A stretch of DNA of 40,269 bases, taken from assembly GCA_001784055.1 (NCBI GenBank), contig MFOZ01000003.1, forward strand, positions 1 to 40,269, written 5' to 3'. This DNA is from Candidatus Levybacteria bacterium RIFCSPLOWO2_01_FULL_42_15 (GTDB taxonomy: Bacteria; Patescibacteriota; Microgenomatia; Levybacterales; UBA12049). This document shows, one piece after another, positions 21,908-40,217 of the stretch. Position numbers and translations under genes: made by a program. Every line of letters starts with the position of its first letter. Position 1 is the stretch's first letter. The notes below the pieces were generated by a model. That model was not told the DNA's origin, made no database searches, and saw only the letters and a program-made list of their open reading frames with translations.

Positions 21908-21942
21908 ATCACCTGGGAGGTGATTTATATAGTGCACCTAGG
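21908..21942 (-). repeat. REP-like hairpin element, copy A (inverted relative to copies B and C)
   Basis: The reverse complement reads CCTAGGTG-CACTATAT-AAATCACCTCCCAGGTGAT. It forms a perfect 7-bp stem ATCACCT/AGGTGAT with a 3-nt loop (21908..21924). It lies 12 nt beyond the RAYT stop. Confidence 0.8.
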
Positions 21943-21953
21943 AATAAAATCTG

Positions 21954-22631
21954 TTATTCAAGGGCAAGGTGCTCGATCTCCTTTAAGGTTCGTTGGTAGT
22001 CTGCTTGATCAAAGACAAATGTTTTGTAGCTTTCAGCATTTTTAAAAAAACCCAAGAGAAGAGATTTATTAACAAATCCATCCCCCTTTGATATATATTC
22101 AGAGAAGGAGGACCATCGATAATATTCAAGTCTATCAATATCCTTTATCACATGGGAAGCATAAGGATTGAGGTGAATATATCTTGAAACATGAATAAGT
22201 TGTTCATCTGTCTCAATTCTGACCGCCTTAAACTGGTTCAGGAATAATGTGCCGTCCCTTTGATGTCTTGTATTGAAATAACGAGTATAACTGTTTTGAA
22301 AATTACTTAAAAACTTCGAAATTCCGCCGTCCATATTCTGTTTTATAAGTAAATGAAAATGATTCGGCATGAAACACCAGCAAAAGATATCGATATTTGT
22401 ATCACCTGCATTCAAAACCCTAAGAAGCTCTGTTCTTTTTTCGTTGCCAAGAGTTAAGAATCTAGAGAGCCTCACTGGAAGCTTTTTGAATCTATAAAAC
22501 TTTATGGATTCCAAAGCTCTGGTAAGTTCTCTTTTTGTAGTAAACGTAGGTTGCCTGTTGGCCCCTCGATTAAAAACATGGTATATCTCGTTTGTAATAA
22601 GCGGAACAATTCTTCCTGGCATTATGCTCAT
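21954..22631 (-). CDS. REP-associated tyrosine transposase (RAYT; IS200/IS605 TnpA-like HUH enzyme)
   Basis: FCWCFMPNHFHLLIKQ (HUH motif HFH) and VSRYIHLNPY (catalytic Tyr in the Y-x-H-x-NP context). The track start at 22658 is a TTG inside the repeat. The in-frame ATGs are at 22631 and 22622; the latter fits a leaderless start from the promoter at 22658..22630. Confidence 0.85.
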   Translation of the reverse strand: MSIMPGRIVPLITNEIYHVFNRGANRQPTFTTKRELTRALESIKFYRFKKLPVRLSRFLTLGNEKRTELLRVLNAGDTNIDIFCWCFMPNHFHLLIKQNMDGGISKFLSNFQNSYTRYFNTRHQRDGTLFLNQFKAVRIETDEQLIHVSRYIHLNPYASHVIKDIDRLEYYRWSSFSEYISKGDGFVNKSLLLGFFKNAESYKTFVFDQADYQRTLKEIEHLALE

Positions 22632-22658
22632 AATATCTAACGTTACCCTAGGTGTCAA
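22630..22658 (-). promoter_or_regulatory. RAYT promoter TTGACA-N17-TATTAT, with the -35 embedded in REP copy B
   Basis: On the minus strand, TTGACA (22658..22653), an exact 17-nt spacer, then TATTAT (22635..22630). The ATG at 22622 begins 8 nt after the -10. Confidence 0.5.
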
Positions 22659-22678
22659 GCTAAATCACCTCCCAGGTG
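22647..22678 (+). repeat. REP-like hairpin element, copy B
   Basis: CCTAGGTG-TCAAGCT-AAATCACCTCCCAGGTG, with a CACCT/AGGTG stem and a CCC loop. It matches copy C at 29/32 positions by my hand alignment. Confidence 0.8.
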
Positions 22679-22705
22679 TTAGTTATGTTAGTTCAGGTGT
22701 TAGTT
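22673..22705 (+). repeat. Short direct repeats CAGGTGTTAGTT (x2, 21-nt period) containing three GTTAGTT units
   Basis: CAGGTGTTAGTT occurs at 22673..22684 and 22694..22705. GTTAGTT also occurs at 22687..22693. The first copy overlaps the 3' arm of REP copy B. Confidence 0.6.
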
Positions 22706-22713
22706 TTTGGTTC

Positions 22714-22742
22714 TTGACAAGAGTTGGCAGTCGTGTTATTAT
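22714..22742 (+). promoter_or_regulatory. hrcA operon promoter TTGACA-N17-TATTAT
   Basis: TTGACA at 22714..22719, an exact 17-nt spacer, TATTAT at 22737..22742. It lies 10 nt before the ATG at 22753. Confidence 0.7.
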
Positions 22743-22750
22743 AGTGCTAA
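22724..22750 (+). promoter_or_regulatory. CIRCE-like HrcA operator (TTGGCAGTC-N9-TAGTGCTAA) overlapping the hrcA promoter
   Basis: The left arm matches the CIRCE consensus TTAGCACTC-N9-GAGTGCTAA at 7/9 positions and the right arm at 8/9, with an exact 9-nt spacer. It overlaps the -10 box and the predicted transcription start. Confidence 0.55.
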
Positions 22751-22752
22751 TC

Positions 22753-23487
22753 ATGCAAGATTTAACACAACGACAGATTCATGTATTGAAGAACCTCATT
22801 GAGGAATATATAGATACCGCGCTTCCCGTGGGGTCTGAAACGCTTGAGAAAAAACACAATTTAAGCGCATCCCCCGCAACTATAAGAAACGAAATGGTTC
22901 GATTAACAAAGTTAGGGTATCTCAAAAAAACCCACACCTCCTCCGGACGAGTTCCGACCCCTTCCGCTATGAAGTTTTATGTCAGTCAGCTTATGAAGGA
23001 AAAGGAATTATCAGTGGTTGAGGAGGTAGCGGTAAAGGAGCAGTTGTGGGACTGTAGGAGCAAAAAGCATGATTTCATGAAAAAGCTCACAAAAACTCTT
23101 GCAGAAAGAACAAAGGCGCTTGCCGTAACTGTTGCGGATGATGATATGCTTTATACTTCTGGATACGCGAATATTCTGGAGATGCCTGAATTTTATGACA
23201 TTGATATCACCAAAAACTTACTGTCCGTCATTGACGAGCTTGATTACTTTGAGAACCTATTCGCACGCATCGCTTTTGATCAAGAAAGGACGCATATACT
23301 GTTAGGAGAAGAGCTCGGACCCAGACTTCCTCCTCAGTACGGTTTTATATTTACCCAATACGAGACGCCTGAGCATGGTCACGGAACGATTGGCGTGTTA
23401 GGACCGGTGCGGCTTCATTACACATCGATTGTGCCCATCGTACGATACTTTGGAAATCTTGCAGGAGAAATTGCGCGAGAATGGTAG
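22753..23487 (+). CDS. hrcA: Heat-inducible transcription repressor HrcA (short, 244 aa)
   Basis: MQDLTQRQIHVLKNLIEEYIDTALPVGSETLEKKHNLSASPATIRNEMVRLTKLGYLKKTHTSSGRVPT is the HrcA winged-helix N-terminus. I reject the upstream part of the track ORF (22504..22752) because it overlaps the RAYT gene and the promoter. Confidence 0.9.
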   Translation: MQDLTQRQIHVLKNLIEEYIDTALPVGSETLEKKHNLSASPATIRNEMVRLTKLGYLKKTHTSSGRVPTPSAMKFYVSQLMKEKELSVVEEVAVKEQLWDCRSKKHDFMKKLTKTLAERTKALAVTVADDDMLYTSGYANILEMPEFYDIDITKNLLSVIDELDYFENLFARIAFDQERTHILLGEELGPRLPPQYGFIFTQYETPEHGHGTIGVLGPVRLHYTSIVPIVRYFGNLAGEIAREW

Positions 23488-37368: not shown

Positions 37369-39495
37369 ATGCCCAGGAGATACCGAAAAAGAAGTCTTCG
37401 CGTAAAACTTAAAAAAGAAACCGTTTACAATGTCTTTGCGTTTGGATTCTTGATTGGCGGAGCTCTTCTCTTGCTCTCATTTTTCAATAACGAGGGCACA
37501 TTTCTTATTATTAAAGATACGCTTGATGAATACTTTGGAGCTGGAGCTCTTCTTTTTCCCGTAACACTTATTTTAGCAGGGTTTCTTTTTTTGAAACTTC
37601 GTTTTCCTCTTTCCCGGCCCAACGTAGTTCTTGGTTTCATCCTGCTCTTTGTATCGGTAATAGGACTATTGAAAGCTGGTATTGTGGGAAGACTATTATT
37701 TGATACCTTTCAGGAGGTTCTTACTCCGTTAGGAAGCATGTTGGTGTTTTTTGCGGGTTTGGTAGTGGGCGTTATTGTGTTGTTTGATACCTCTGTTGAT
37801 GAAATCATGCAGGGGATAAGTATTGTTTATAAAATAACTACCCGGCTTATTCCCAAACGCCTACTTTCTTCTCTTTTTAAGACAAAAAAACCTCTTGTGG
37901 TTAGAGACACACCCATGACTATTAATAAGGGTGCGCTGTCTCGAGATGGTTCTTCTATGCTAGCTGATTCCGCAATCAAGATACAAACCCGCAAAGAACC
38001 GGAAATTCTGTCAGAAAAATTAGTAAGCAACTTCCCTGCTGACAACAAGGGGGAAATATGGGAATATCCTCCTTTGTCCTTGCTTTCTGACATTACGGGG
38101 CAAAAAGCAGATCGGGGAGATATCAAGCGTATTGCAAGCGTTATCGAAAAAACATTATCCAGTTTTAGCATTAAAGCTCAAGTTGTTGAGGTTAATCTTG
38201 GTCCTGCGGTTACTCAATATGCGCTTGAAATTGCCCTTGGAACCAAAGTCTCCCGCATTACCGCCCTTTCCAATGATCTTGCTCTTGCAACGGAAGCTCC
38301 AACAGGACAAATTCGCATAGAAGCTCCTATTCCGGGCAGAGGACTTGTGGGTATTGAAATTCCGAACAGATCTCTTGAGGTAGTGACCTTAAAGACAATT
38401 CTCTCATCATCCATCATGCAAAAAAACAGATCCAAACTGGTTGCAGCCCTCGGCCTTGATGTATCCGGAAATCCGTTGGTTGCTGACGTTGCGAGAATGC
38501 CACATGTTCTTATTGCCGGAACTACCGGATCAGGAAAATCGGTTCTTATCAATTCATTTATTTGCTCTCTTCTCTTTAGGGGATCTCCTCAGGAGGTAAA
38601 ACTTATCCTCGTTGATCCAAAGCGCGTCGAGTTTACCGCTTTCAATGGCATTCCCCATCTTCTTACTCCGGTTATTGTAGAACAAGCAAAGATTCTCTCG
38701 GCGCTCCGATGGGCAATGGGAGAAATGGATAGAAGATATAAATTATTTGCAGAACAAGGTGTTAAAAACATCGATGCGTATAATGAGCTTTCTGGATTTC
38801 AAGCGCTTCCCTACATAGTCATTATTATTGATGAGCTTGCGGATCTTATGATGTTTGCTCCTGTTGAGGTTGAAGACGCGATTGCGCGTCTTGCGCAAAT
38901 GGCGCGCGCAACAGGAATCCATTTAGTGATTGCGACACAGAGGCCATCGGTAAACGTTATTACCGGTCTTATTAAGGCAAATATTCCTTGTCGGATCGCG
39001 TTTAACGTTTCATCCATGATTGACTCTCGGGTAATCATTGATGTGCCTGGGGCAGAGAAGCTTTTAGGACGGGGAGATATGTTGTATATTCCTCCGGATC
39101 AAGCAAAACCAACTCGTATTCAAGGAACATACGTATCCGAAAAAGAAGTTAAAAAACTCGTTGACTACCTTAAGGCAAAAGGGGTTCCTCTGGAATATAC
39201 AGAAGAAGTTACCGCCCAAGCGATTCCGGTGAAACGGGGAGGCGGCGCAGCTTCTTCTCCAACGGACGTACGAGATCCTTTATTTGAAGAGGCTATTCGG
39301 GTAGTATGTCAACACGATAGAGCGTCGGCATCTCTTTTACAAAGAAGACTGTCTGTTGGATATTCTCGTGCGGCGAGGATTATAGATCAACTTGAAGAAG
39401 TTGGTATTGTGAGCCCCGGAGAAGGATCTAAACCGAGAGATGTTCTTGTTCAAAACGCGCAAGATTTTCTCAATAATCTTCAACAGAGACAATAA
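37369..39495 (+). CDS. ftsK: DNA translocase FtsK/SpoIIIE
   Basis: N-terminal TM helices and a linker, then a motor domain with LIAGTTGSGKSV (Walker A) and IVIIIDELADLM (Walker B), and a gamma winged-helix (ASLLQRRLSVGYSRAARIIDQLEEVGIV). I take the ATG at 37369; the track's TTG at 37351 overlaps rnj. Confidence 0.93.
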   Translation: MPRRYRKRSLRVKLKKETVYNVFAFGFLIGGALLLLSFFNNEGTFLIIKDTLDEYFGAGALLFPVTLILAGFLFLKLRFPLSRPNVVLGFILLFVSVIGLLKAGIVGRLLFDTFQEVLTPLGSMLVFFAGLVVGVIVLFDTSVDEIMQGISIVYKITTRLIPKRLLSSLFKTKKPLVVRDTPMTINKGALSRDGSSMLADSAIKIQTRKEPEILSEKLVSNFPADNKGEIWEYPPLSLLSDITGQKADRGDIKRIASVIEKTLSSFSIKAQVVEVNLGPAVTQYALEIALGTKVSRITALSNDLALATEAPTGQIRIEAPIPGRGLVGIEIPNRSLEVVTLKTILSSSIMQKNRSKLVAALGLDVSGNPLVADVARMPHVLIAGTTGSGKSVLINSFICSLLFRGSPQEVKLILVDPKRVEFTAFNGIPHLLTPVIVEQAKILSALRWAMGEMDRRYKLFAEQGVKNIDAYNELSGFQALPYIVIIIDELADLMMFAPVEVEDAIARLAQMARATGIHLVIATQRPSVNVITGLIKANIPCRIAFNVSSMIDSRVIIDVPGAEKLLGRGDMLYIPPDQAKPTRIQGTYVSEKEVKKLVDYLKAKGVPLEYTEEVTAQAIPVKRGGGAASSPTDVRDPLFEEAIRVVCQHDRASASLLQRRLSVGYSRAARIIDQLEEVGIVSPGEGSKPRDVLVQNAQDFLNNLQQRQ

Positions 39496-39514
39496 GAATA
39501 GGTACTCTTTCTGT

Positions 39515-40150
39515 ATGATTCGACTTGGCCAACGACTTCGTGAAGTCCGCATCGGAAAAGGAATAAGCCTTGAAGAAGTTTCTCGAGCAACAAAAATCAA
39601 AATAGCCTTTTTATCGGCAATTGAGGACGGTATGTATGAGAAGCTTCCATCAAGTTCTTACGCGCAGGGATTTGTAAAAAACTACGCTCAATTCCTGGGG
39701 TTCTCGGAGCGGGAAGCAATGGCTCTCTTTCGCCGTGAATTCGACGAAAAAAGAATATTTAAAGTGTTGCCGGATGGACTTGTCAGTCCCCACGAATTCC
39801 ACCCGTCAAAACGCATTTTTCAACAAACGACAATAATTGTCCTATCTGTTTTTGTAGTTCTTATTGGTTATATTTTTTTTCAAAATCGGTACGTATTTAT
39901 CAATCCTCCCCTTGAAGTAATTACGCCAATTGAAAATGCAGTTCTTGACACAACGCGGGTTATGGTTTCAGGAAGAACGGATCAGAATGCGAGCGTGTTC
40001 GTAAATGGAGAACCCGCATTTATTGACAAAGATGGTTCTTTTCAAAAAAATGTGACATTTTTTTCCGGCAAAGAGACTCTTGAGGTTACGGCGGTAAATC
40101 GTTTTGGGAAAGAAACAAAAGTGAAAAGACACATAGAAATAAAAGAATAA
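39515..40150 (+). CDS. rodZ: RodZ-like HTH (XRE) cytoskeleton-associated membrane protein
   Basis: MIRLGQRLREVRIGKGISLEEVSRATKIKIAFLSAIEDGMYEKLPSSSYAQGFVKNYAQFLG is the RodZ-type HTH. It is followed by one TM and an extracytoplasmic beta-domain. The first ATG is at 39515. Confidence 0.75.
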   Translation: MIRLGQRLREVRIGKGISLEEVSRATKIKIAFLSAIEDGMYEKLPSSSYAQGFVKNYAQFLGFSEREAMALFRREFDEKRIFKVLPDGLVSPHEFHPSKRIFQQTTIIVLSVFVVLIGYIFFQNRYVFINPPLEVITPIENAVLDTTRVMVSGRTDQNASVFVNGEPAFIDKDGSFQKNVTFFSGKETLEVTAVNRFGKETKVKRHIEIKE

Positions 40151-40185
40151 ATTCTTGGTTTTGATCAAAAATAAGAGAGGAATTT

Positions 40186-40217
40186 CCTAGGTGCCAAGCT
40201 AATCCACCTCCCAGGTG
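40186..40217 (+). repeat. REP-like hairpin element, copy C (dispersed)
   Basis: CCTAGGTG-CCAAGCT-AATCCACCTCCCAGGTG, 35 nt after the rodZ-like stop. It matches copy B at 29/32 positions. Confidence 0.75.

Follow-up and report, generated by a model that had tools for sequence, protein, structure and literature searches.

In a 40,269-nucleotide (nt) stretch of contig MFOZ01000003.1 from the genome of a member of the Levybacteria, ultra-small bacteria here sampled from groundwater (the window, here always the whole stretch), a gene for a small tyrosine transposase is bracketed by inverted copies of a composite hairpin repeat of about 35 nt. We propose, with a probability of roughly 0.7, that gene and repeat form a low-copy system of the type known as REP/RAYT (repetitive extragenic palindromes and REP-associated tyrosine transposases), with a non-GTAG repeat, in the Microgenomates branch of the Patescibacteria, or candidate phyla radiation (CPR). 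A reading of the window made earlier from the letters only (hereafter the sequence-only reading) had proposed a REP/RAYT system with a different, CCTAGG-headed repeat, and this proposal gains support on three counts. The repeat extends beyond its three sites in the window to dozens of related genomes, mostly as solo intergenic copies. The gene was found in one place per assembly, with hrcA, a membrane protein gene and metG as neighbours; neither multiple identical copies nor a tnpB were seen. Finally, its HUH and Tyr residues are homologous to the catalytic ones according to Pfam, an alignment of 25 homologues, an alignment with ISDra2 TnpA and a fold match with Protein Data Bank (PDB) entry 4ER8. 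The proposal carries three qualifications: copies probably number in the tens per genome, as opposed to the hundreds typical of REPs in Pseudomonas or E. coli, singlets prevail over the inverted doublets called REPINs, and the protein scores below the NCBIfam cut-off for RAYTs.

Inverted repeat copies bracket the transposase gene

The features that make up the system in the window are the following.

21954..22622, minus strand: gene for a Y1 HUH protein, RAYT/TIRYT-like, 222 amino acids (aa) (Pfam, AlphaFold2 model, 25 homologues, public records)
21908..21945, minus strand: downstream (3') repeat copy A, covariance model score 46 bits (21908-21942 in the sequence-only reading)
22646..22678, plus strand: upstream (5') repeat copy B, 49.9 bits (previously 22647-22678)
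40184..40217, plus strand: solo repeat copy C, 54.9 bits (previously 40186-40217)
22620..22658, minus strand: putative transposase promoter, read from the sequence, with its -35 box TTGACA (22653-22658) inside copy B
22673..22705, plus strand: imperfect tandem duplication CAGGTG-TTAGTT...CAGGTG-TTAGTT, adjoining the core of copy B

The element on either side of the gene follows the pattern tCC(C)TAGGTG-N11/12-CACCTCCCAGGTG, and its two copies are inverted with their heads towards the gene. Copy A, read on the gene strand as aTTCCTAGGTG-CACTATATAAAT-CACCTCCCAGGTGAT, has a 12-nt spacer and a 7-bp stem, starts 8-11 nt past the transposase stop codon and folds as single-stranded DNA with -5.3 kcal/mol (z -2.6). 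Copy B, inverted with respect to copy A, reads CCCTAGGTG-TCAAGCTAAAT-CACCTCCCAGGTG and has a spacer of 11 nt. Copy C, which reads TTCCTAGGTG-CCAAGCTAATC-CACCTCCCAGGTG, is of the same 5' type with an 11-nt spacer, is identical to copy B at 29 of 32 positions, and lies 33 nt past the stop codon of an unrelated plus-strand open reading frame (ORF, 39440-40150).

Pattern search and covariance model agree on the three copies where the sequence-only reading had placed them. Its opposite orientation of the flanking copies is likewise read in the window and at 8 of 9 readable homologue loci, and its 7-bp stem in copy A is confirmed by folding. The limits of the element, on the other hand, had been drawn slightly too short: across genomes, conservation includes an A-rich stretch and TCCC before TAGGTG as well as 1-3 stem pairs beyond the core. 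With three mismatches or fewer, the 17-nt core is matched three times in the window versus 0.09 times expected, a number reached in 0 of 100 shuffles. The covariance model, trained on 121 copies from other genomes, finds exactly A, B and C and no further copy in the 40-kb window.

The minus-strand ORF with its 3' end at 21954 (TAA stop, 21954-21956) is longest when started from a TTG at 22658. The start is most likely the ATG at 22622, because this codon is conserved in all homologues and used in public gene calls; the product then has 222 aa and begins with MPGR. The 225-aa product of the sequence-only reading, starting from an ATG at 22631, is less likely, and the HUH and Tyr motifs that it named are invariant among the 25 homologues.

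The protein has a predicted class 2 Y1 fold closest to a REP-bound transposase

Pfam assigns the protein to Y1_Tnp (E 5e-10, above the cut-off). Among 25 aligned homologues, H88, H90, Y148, H150, N152 and P153 are invariant, in the motifs NHFH and YIHLNP, and a tail motif W170-S171-S172 is invariant or nearly so. A single-sequence search of the PDB returned nothing relevant, and a profile of the 25 homologues aligned with PDB sequences only weakly, through the HUH region of ISDra2 TnpA; a predicted structure was therefore needed for the link to RAYTs. The AlphaFold2 model (predicted local distance difference test, pLDDT, 84) has a sole PDB match at E<=0.001, 4ER8 (E 2.5e-5), a complex of the E. 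coli REP-associated transposase with a REP hairpin, and the IS608 and ISDra2 TnpA structures rank lower. The C-terminus extends about 70 residues past the Tyr motif and forms short helices in the model. No C-terminal helix-turn-helix (Bac_DnaA_C, HTH_23 or HTH_28) was detected, Pfam giving Y1_Tnp alone.

The HUH motif and the Y---NP form of the Tyr motif on a Y1 fold place the protein in class 2 of the TnpA-Y1 proteins. In a by-eye comparison with Table 1 of Quentin et al. 2018 (PMC6006769), it has the NH[YF]H and Y[IV]HLNP motifs and the SS pair in the proximal tail of subclass 2.1, which that table equates with TIRYT and marks as RAYT Group 1 of Bertels. With the NCBIfam equivalog model NF047646 (REP_Tyr_transpos) it scores 47.7 bits, short of the cut-off of 80 expected of a classical RAYT. 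By its motifs, the transposase resembles subclass 2.1 (TIRYT) most closely, and not the classical branches associated with GTAG REPs. A search retrieved more than 7,700 relatives, of which the best 120 share 57-71% identity with the protein and nearly all have 220-225 aa; the named hosts among them are Levy-, Davies- and Gottesmanbacteria.

The exact 222-aa protein is present on 15 public contigs, from Rifle groundwater metagenomes and from assembly GCA_001783905.1, with an identical neighbourhood in all of them. Exact-protein look-ups return one place per assembly, including in the complete 820-kb chromosome CP066688.1, and no second gene of this type was seen in any one assembly in the 118 blocks fetched from other genomes. 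The transposase-derived gene is seemingly single-copy in each genome, as judged by these look-ups and blocks, outside which divergent paralogues elsewhere in the genomes would fall.

Homologous loci share the bracket and a putative embedded promoter

Loci and sequence blocks from other genomes are designated by L numbers. Homologues that share 50-63% identity with the transposase carry the same element on either side; they come from Davies-, Gottesman- and Levybacteria, among other Microgenomates. At 8 of the 9 readable loci the flanking copies are inverted, as are the hairpin flanks of REPtrons; at the ninth, L072 (2936-3712, Levybacteria), both copies have the same orientation. Two homologues 59-60% identical to the transposase, in a complete Daviesbacteria chromosome (L008) and in a 557-kb Gottesmanbacteria contig (L009), lie next to ruvC and to dprA/topA, respectively, and both are bracketed by the same element with the same geometry. 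The contigs of L009 and L011 carry the identical Gottesmanbacteria gene. They are 99.9% identical to the right of a breakpoint at L009 6370 and L011 2799, and unrelated to the left of it, so that either the strains differ by a rearrangement or an assembly is chimeric; no repeat copy lies at this breakpoint.

Upstream of the gene, 7 of 8 other full-length loci show CACCTGGG(A/G)GGTG, then 7-8 nt and TTGACA-CCTAGGG, one or two of them with a single substitution; at L118 the upstream copy is present without the TTGACA box. In 6 of these 8 loci, TTGACA-N17-TAnnnT is followed by the ATG 6-12 nt on, usually 6-7. The window has the same arrangement: TTGACA, a 17-nt spacer, the -10 box TATTAT (22630-22635), 7 nt and the ATG (22620-22622). 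Hence, as read from these sequences, the gene would have a near-consensus promoter whose -35 box lies within the upstream repeat, and the transposase mRNA is probably leaderless. On the 3' side, the other full-length loci carry CCCTAGGTG-N11/12-CACCYCCCAGGTG within 0-15 nt of the stop codon, and at two loci the TAG or TAA of the repeat head itself is the stop codon of the gene.

A more divergent homologue, 50% identical to the transposase, is accompanied at L104 (4450-5290) by an altered repeat with the compensated stem CACCC-TCA-GGGTG, a pattern expected if protein and DNA had evolved together. Further variant families with compensated stems were observed at L011 (1716-1800, CACTC-CCG-GAGTG), L027 (7455-7501, CACCC-TTC-GGGTG) and L083 (6492-6530, TACCTC-GG-AGGTA). 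Such families hint at several protein/repeat pairs in these lineages.

The repeat is a composite element with a covarying hairpin

Across genomes the element totals about 35 nt. Its head, (T)CCCTAGGTG, is separated by 11-12 nt from a short hairpin, CACC(T/C)-CCC-AGGTG plus 1-3 variable pairs, with a stem of 5-8 bp. Three stem pairs beyond the core covary (the first pair is C-G in 49 copies, U-A in 19 and A-U in 9), and the covariation score was reached in 0 of 500 shuffles. Double changes keep compensated stems such as CACCC/GGGTG and TACCT/AGGTA. As DNA the hairpins are weak (-3.9 to -5.4 kcal/mol), and the fold of copy C does not differ from that of shuffled sequence. No credible Rfam family was found around the gene, even at E up to 10.

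In a canonical REP, GT[AG]G precedes the foot of a GC-rich hairpin on its 5' side by 0-2 nt (PMC6006769); in the present element, neither GTAG nor GTGG stands at the foot. Inverted doublets at a short, fixed distance, which predominate in REPINs, are also scarce: most copies are singlets, with a few double-headed forms and inverted cores. These were observed at L013 (4010-4074), L035, L057 (3822-3886), L056 and L082 (1464-1567), as a head, spacer, shared hairpin, spacer and inverted head, or as a pair of inverted cores separated by 14 nt. Such forms are similar to the 'double foot' REPs of another Y1 subclass.

Spacers fall into two types across genomes, one of 11 nt starting with (T/C)CAA, like that of upstream copies, and one of 12 nt, for example TCCTAGCTAAAT, like that of downstream copies. 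Solo copies of both types co-occur within a single genome. The distance between spacers is 0.317 within genomes versus 0.529 between them, and 0 of 500 permutations gave a value as low, which indicates that copies would have spread or been homogenized within lineages.

Solo copies are dispersed between genes in Microgenomates

Species-representative genomes were scanned with the pattern TAGGTG-N10-13-CACCYCCCAGGTG, from which at least 118 blocks of 8 kb were obtained. They contain at least about 123 true copies in at least about 57 assemblies, and all listed true copies are preceded by an A-rich stretch and (T)CCC. Six matches in high-GC organisms, without the CCC context, were discarded as chance. 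The named hosts among the matches listed are Davies-, Levy-, Gottesman-, Woese-, Shapiro-, Chisholm- and Woykebacteria, together with one metagenome-assembled genome labelled 'Parcubacteria'. The richest assemblies have at least 9, at least 8 and at least 7 copies. The gene is present in 11 of the blocks listed, leaving at least roughly 105 solo copies away from it. Head and core are nearly always joined (122 full elements for 131 heads and 143 cores in the blocks listed). In 730 kb of blocks, the covariance model gives 128 matches, about 28 of them beyond those of the scan, including an estimated 10 or so that are gene-flanking partners. Combined with the single solo copy of the window, these matches suggest a density of about one such copy in 40 kb and thus probably tens of copies per genome, a rough figure since the blocks were chosen for carrying a copy.

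Some elements are on contigs labelled Pacearchaeota, Bathyarchaeia or 'uncultured Gammaproteobacteria (binchicken)' (L054, L073, L098, L120; about 28 'binchicken' assemblies between L012 and L125). An archaeal host was rejected, as the ORFs look bacterial (an OmpR-type regulator with a histidine kinase, MnmA, a Pol IV-like protein), and the archaeal-labelled contigs are probably mis-binned. Three of the 'binchicken' assemblies show 70-71% nucleotide identity over syntenic flanks to named Davies- or Gottesmanbacteria contigs, those carrying the element have a GC content of 34-40%, and we take their 'Gammaproteobacteria' label to be a placeholder.

Most copies (95 of 125, 76%) lie outside crude ORF calls that cover 89% of the bases (p about 1e-63). 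This is the extragenic over-representation seen in REPtrons, at a moderate and not a high level. The head side faces the 3' end of a co-oriented gene in 54 cases and the 5' end in 37, a weak bias; where both neighbouring genes run in one direction, the element shares it in 28 cases versus 14. Many copies are located just past stop codons, and 13 crude ORF calls have the TAG of a head as their stop codon.

These positions bear on the view that the repeats are signals of the host acting in RNA or DNA (terminators, mRNA-stabilising hairpins, a hidden GGAGG) and that their presence at the gene is incidental. The core (21910-21926 and 22662-22678) reads ATCACCTCC, which we take to be similar to the 3' end of 16S rRNA, and its complement GGGAGGTGAT is a perfect Shine-Dalgarno sequence, partly within the hairpin; both features, like the many copies right after stop codons and the 13 shared with an ORF, would fit such signals. 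The GGGAGGTGAT near the transposase gene lies about 35-45 nt upstream of its ATG, too far to serve it. Against host signals, the element stands on both sides of every full-length gene locus examined, at fixed distances, and at L104 it is altered along with the divergent protein; in addition, the hairpin is followed by no T run, the orientation bias is weak and no Rfam family matches. A role as terminator is ruled out by the missing T run and the small orientation bias. Solo copies were also considered as portable promoters and rejected: with the RAYT loci set aside, copies of the TTGACA type are not significantly enriched upstream of genes. We regard the host-signal explanation as most improbable.

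An ordinary autonomous insertion sequence (IS) of the IS200 kind, with terminal inverted repeats and with solo copies as its decayed remnants, would account for the Pfam domain name ('Transposase IS200 like'), for a gene neighbourhood that varies by lineage (hrcA here, ruvC at L008, dprA/topA at L009) and for the ends of L072, which have the direct orientation found in IS200/IS605. However, IS200 transposases have Y---Q where this protein has the Y---NP of class 2 (Table 1, PMC6006769), the ends are inverted and not on the same strand, and neither the near-identical copies nor the tnpB genes frequent in IS200/IS605 were seen: the exact protein is in one place per assembly, the complete chromosome included, and no tnpB is present among the neighbours of the gene. 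Among the matches listed, solo ends outnumber gene-bearing units by about 10:1 and are complete 33-nt units without gene remnants at their flanks. Furthermore, inverted ends put the sites on opposite strands, unfit for single-strand excision of the whole unit, an argument from the REPtron literature that we infer to hold here. A scan of 2.9 million viral contigs gave no true match; its one hit, at 54% GC and with neither the CCC context nor the gene close by, is due to chance. Taken together, an autonomous IS appears very unlikely.

An insertion and tandem duplications point to DNA transactions at the repeat

An all-against-all comparison of flanks provided one clean pair of filled and empty sites. 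In uvrB of L087 (5520-5620, plus strand), the element lies within a 63-nt, 21-codon in-frame insertion that is absent from the related uvrB of L112 (2324-2335; 71% protein identity). Two other orthologous sites contain diverged elements or are too diverged to be read. REP insertions in repair genes are mentioned in PMC3733652. A degenerate double-headed copy was also observed inside the tgt ORF of L008 (4726-4779).

A tandem duplication of CAGGTG with 2-16 nt of local flank is present at 12 of 125 copies (about 10%), versus 7 of 1607 control AGGTG sites (0.4%). The duplications comprise 2-3 units and were observed at L014 (815-870), L043, L092 (7560-7640), L093, L096, L113, L117, L125 and L129; further ones occur at L011 and, in two cases, with T in place of C. 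The one next to copy B in the window is the weakest of the 12, with 6 nt of flank repeated. A metagenome scan with CACCTCCCAGGTG-N2-20-AGGTG gave mostly chance matches in unrelated DNA, a head standing beside 8 of 134 cores. Five of these 8 headed cores have a second AGGTG, and in 4 of the 5 the flank is duplicated, two of the 4 being already known from the Gottesmanbacteria locus. Since C precedes the second AGGTG in 11 of the 12 duplications, the left edge of the duplicated unit, located by reading and without computed boundaries, would lie between the second and third C of the loop. The duplications are thus a possible footprint of activity and suggest CC^CAGGTG, in the loop, as a candidate cut site.

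It is conceivable, if doubtful, that the enzyme resembles rolling-circle Rep proteins and nicks inside the hairpin loop, at CC^CAGGTG, whereas IS608 TnpA and E. coli TnpA-REP cut outside the hairpin. With a nick at CC^C and the enzyme on the 5' end, a short extension of the 3'-OH followed by rejoining would leave the left edge fixed and the right edge variable, and the recurrent CAGGTG duplications would be in-vivo footprints of these steps. The loop and 3' arm, TCCC-AGGTG, recur in the head as TCCC-T-AGGTG, so that the head might provide a second cut site on the same strand. Outside cores, CCCAGGTG occurs 20 times, versus a median of 8 for permuted 8-mers, a modest excess. A two-site excision unit, CTAGGTG...CACCTCC inserted into TCC^CAGGTG, was considered and found unsupported, the uvrB insertion being 63 nt long with extra sequence on both sides.

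These signs also bear on domestication of the protein, with the repeats as selected, immobile binding sites for a host function such as regulation, replication/repair signalling or chromosome organisation. Head and core are nearly invariant at loci whose proteins are only 50-63% identical, the family of more than 7,700 relatives is very uniform in length, and copy numbers are low. The -35 box in the upstream repeat would make autoregulation possible, and Bertels et al. 2017 (PMC5581495) argue for a host-gene-like behaviour of RAYTs as a whole. On the other side, spacers are more alike within than between genomes, the uvrB insertion is absent from a relative, and tandem duplications at the core boundary are locus-specific; these three observations therefore speak for continuing DNA transactions and not for static sites. 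Position and orientation with respect to neighbouring genes are also inconsistent. We judge domestication with immobile sites unlikely. It does overlap with the REP/RAYT explanation, as host benefit and mobility are compatible.

Proposed mechanism and points that weigh against it

In the REP/RAYT explanation, the gene product would be a class 2 Y1 HUH nuclease/ligase for single-stranded DNA, and the composite element of about 35 nt its cognate DNA. On the model of IS608 TnpA and E. coli TnpA-REP, it would bind the hairpin in single-stranded DNA, for example on the lagging-strand template, and would cut and rejoin DNA beside or within the hairpin by means of Tyr148 and an HUH-bound metal. Dispersed copies may arise or be maintained in this way. 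The gene itself would not move, because its flanking copies place equivalent sites on opposite strands. We infer that the protein acts on the repeats and, from its characterized relatives, that it recognizes single-stranded DNA; any host benefit is likewise conjectural.

Several points weigh against this explanation. What ties the protein to the repeat is adjacency and co-variation, and published work found no REPs for subclass 2.1, the nearest subclass (PMC6006769). The transposase scores under the NCBIfam RAYT cut-off, and the flanking copies of L072 are in direct orientation. A single gene copy per genome is presumptive, being judged indirectly, and tens of copies per genome is a rough estimate from at least 118 blocks and not from complete genomes. 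The hairpins are short and weak, that of copy C folding like shuffled sequence, so that recognition as double-stranded inverted repeats is possible. Finally, filled and empty sites are represented by one clean pair, whose 63-nt insertion exceeds the length of the element.

Comparison with known systems

The general kind of system, in which inverted copies of an otherwise dispersed repeat enclose a low-copy class 2 Y1 gene, is known under the names of REPtrons, TIRtrons and RAYT Groups 1-5 (PMC3733652, PMC5581495, PMC6006769). It is not new, because RAYT-like genes with non-GTAG inverted repeats in moderately abundant families, TIRYT genes or 'TIRtrons', were described in 2013 (Di Nocera et al., PMC3733652). 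For RAYT Group 1, flanking 16-mers occur about 12 times genome-wide (Bertels, PMC5581495). Like TIRYTs, the protein is a class 2 Y1 transposase that has NH[YF]H, Y[IV]HLNP and an SS pair in its tail and falls in the size range of about 220-240 aa, the gene copy number appears low, and the inverted flanking repeats are moderately abundant and devoid of GTAG. Unlike them, no C-terminal helix-turn-helix was detected, and the flanks have a clear covarying hairpin and lack the GGGGWSAS of most TIRYT repeats. Quentin et al. (PMC6006769) found no REP-like structures for subclass 2.1, whereas a hairpin repeat is present here. The CPR hosts, absent from all three studies, also differ, as does a repeat nearly identical across many Microgenomates candidate phyla.

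The E. coli TnpA-REP with its REPs and bacterial interspersed mosaic elements (BIMEs) (4ER8, PMC3479197; Ton-Hoang et al. 2012, as reported in PMC6006769) is the best structural match. It shares with the Levybacteria system a gene without sign of extra copies, a bracket of inverted hairpin repeats that are also dispersed intergenically, and conserved unpaired bases 5' of the hairpin. Sequence identity is nevertheless 15%, and the Levybacteria protein is longer (222 versus 165 aa), its last 70 or so residues forming a helical C-terminal tail. The head CCCTAGGTG is 11-12 nt away from a hairpin with a 5-8 bp stem, whereas in E. coli GTAG stands at the foot of a long GC-rich stem, and copies are probably in the tens per genome compared with hundreds.

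With the REPIN-RAYT systems of Pseudomonas (Bertels & Rainey 2011, PMC3116915), the present one has in common a seemingly single-copy gene with a cognate repeat family, within-genome sequence populations distinct between genomes, and an apparently long persistence in the lineage. It differs in that most copies are singlets with few double-headed forms (e.g. L013, L057) and in copy numbers lower by one to two orders of magnitude. IS608 and ISDra2 TnpA have the same HUH/Tyr fold, act on small subterminal hairpins and offer the analogy for a presumed cleavage of single-stranded DNA through a 5'-phosphotyrosine intermediate. They differ by Y---Q as opposed to Y---NP and by ends on the same strand as opposed to inverted ends, and IS200/IS605 elements by the tnpB and multiple identical copies not seen here. 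Overall, the distinct features are the CCCTAGGTG head without GTAG, the combination of motifs like those of subclass 2.1 with a hairpin repeat, the CPR hosts and the near-invariant recognition sequence.

We found no description of a REP/RAYT system in the CPR in the literature; the surveys PMC3733652, PMC5581495 and PMC6006769 do not include CPR genomes. Known work on such systems is almost confined to Proteobacteria and a few other cultured phyla, and here they would reach reduced genomes: in many candidate phyla, genomes of about 1 Mb with little repetitive DNA retain a Y1 gene together with its family of repeats. Such retention is relevant to the question whether RAYTs act selfishly or serve the host. 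A tentative reading, short of probable though more likely than a cut in the loop, is that the pair has been vertically co-inherited since ancient times across Microgenomates, the recognition sequence being frozen as the protein drifted to 50-60% identity. If true, it would imply a function that minimal genomes cannot afford to lose. REPs are usually called species-specific, and the near-unchanged recognition sequence here amounts to a large natural data set on how a protein reads DNA. The boundary-specific duplications, in turn, point to a concrete candidate cleavage site.

Neighbouring genes and annotation

In the window, the transposase gene is flanked by hrcA-grpE-dnaK-dnaJ-clpB on one side and by a gene for a small membrane protein and metG on the other. 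One further feature lies between the bracket and this operon.

22715-22756: hrcA promoter/operator, with TTGACA (22715-22720), 17 nt and TATTAT (22738-22743)

An inverted repeat TTGGCAGTC-N9-TAGTGCTAA at 22725-22751, similar to CIRCE (controlling inverted repeat of chaperone expression), overlaps the -10 box of hrcA and ends 2 nt before an ATG at 22754. Starting from this ATG, HrcA has 244 aa, as in the NCBI record, and the mRNA of the hrcA operon would therefore be nearly leaderless. More generally, the element is of use for annotation: the archaeal and gammaproteobacterial labels of several element-bearing assemblies look wrong, and some hrcA calls run into the repeat. In some public gene calls hrcA has 287 aa, and its longest ORF has 327 aa (window 22504-22753; L001 9136-9999); both versions traverse the upstream repeat and the CIRCE-like site and reach right up to the start of the transposase gene. 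Promoter and operator agree better with the 244-aa call than with these longer ones.

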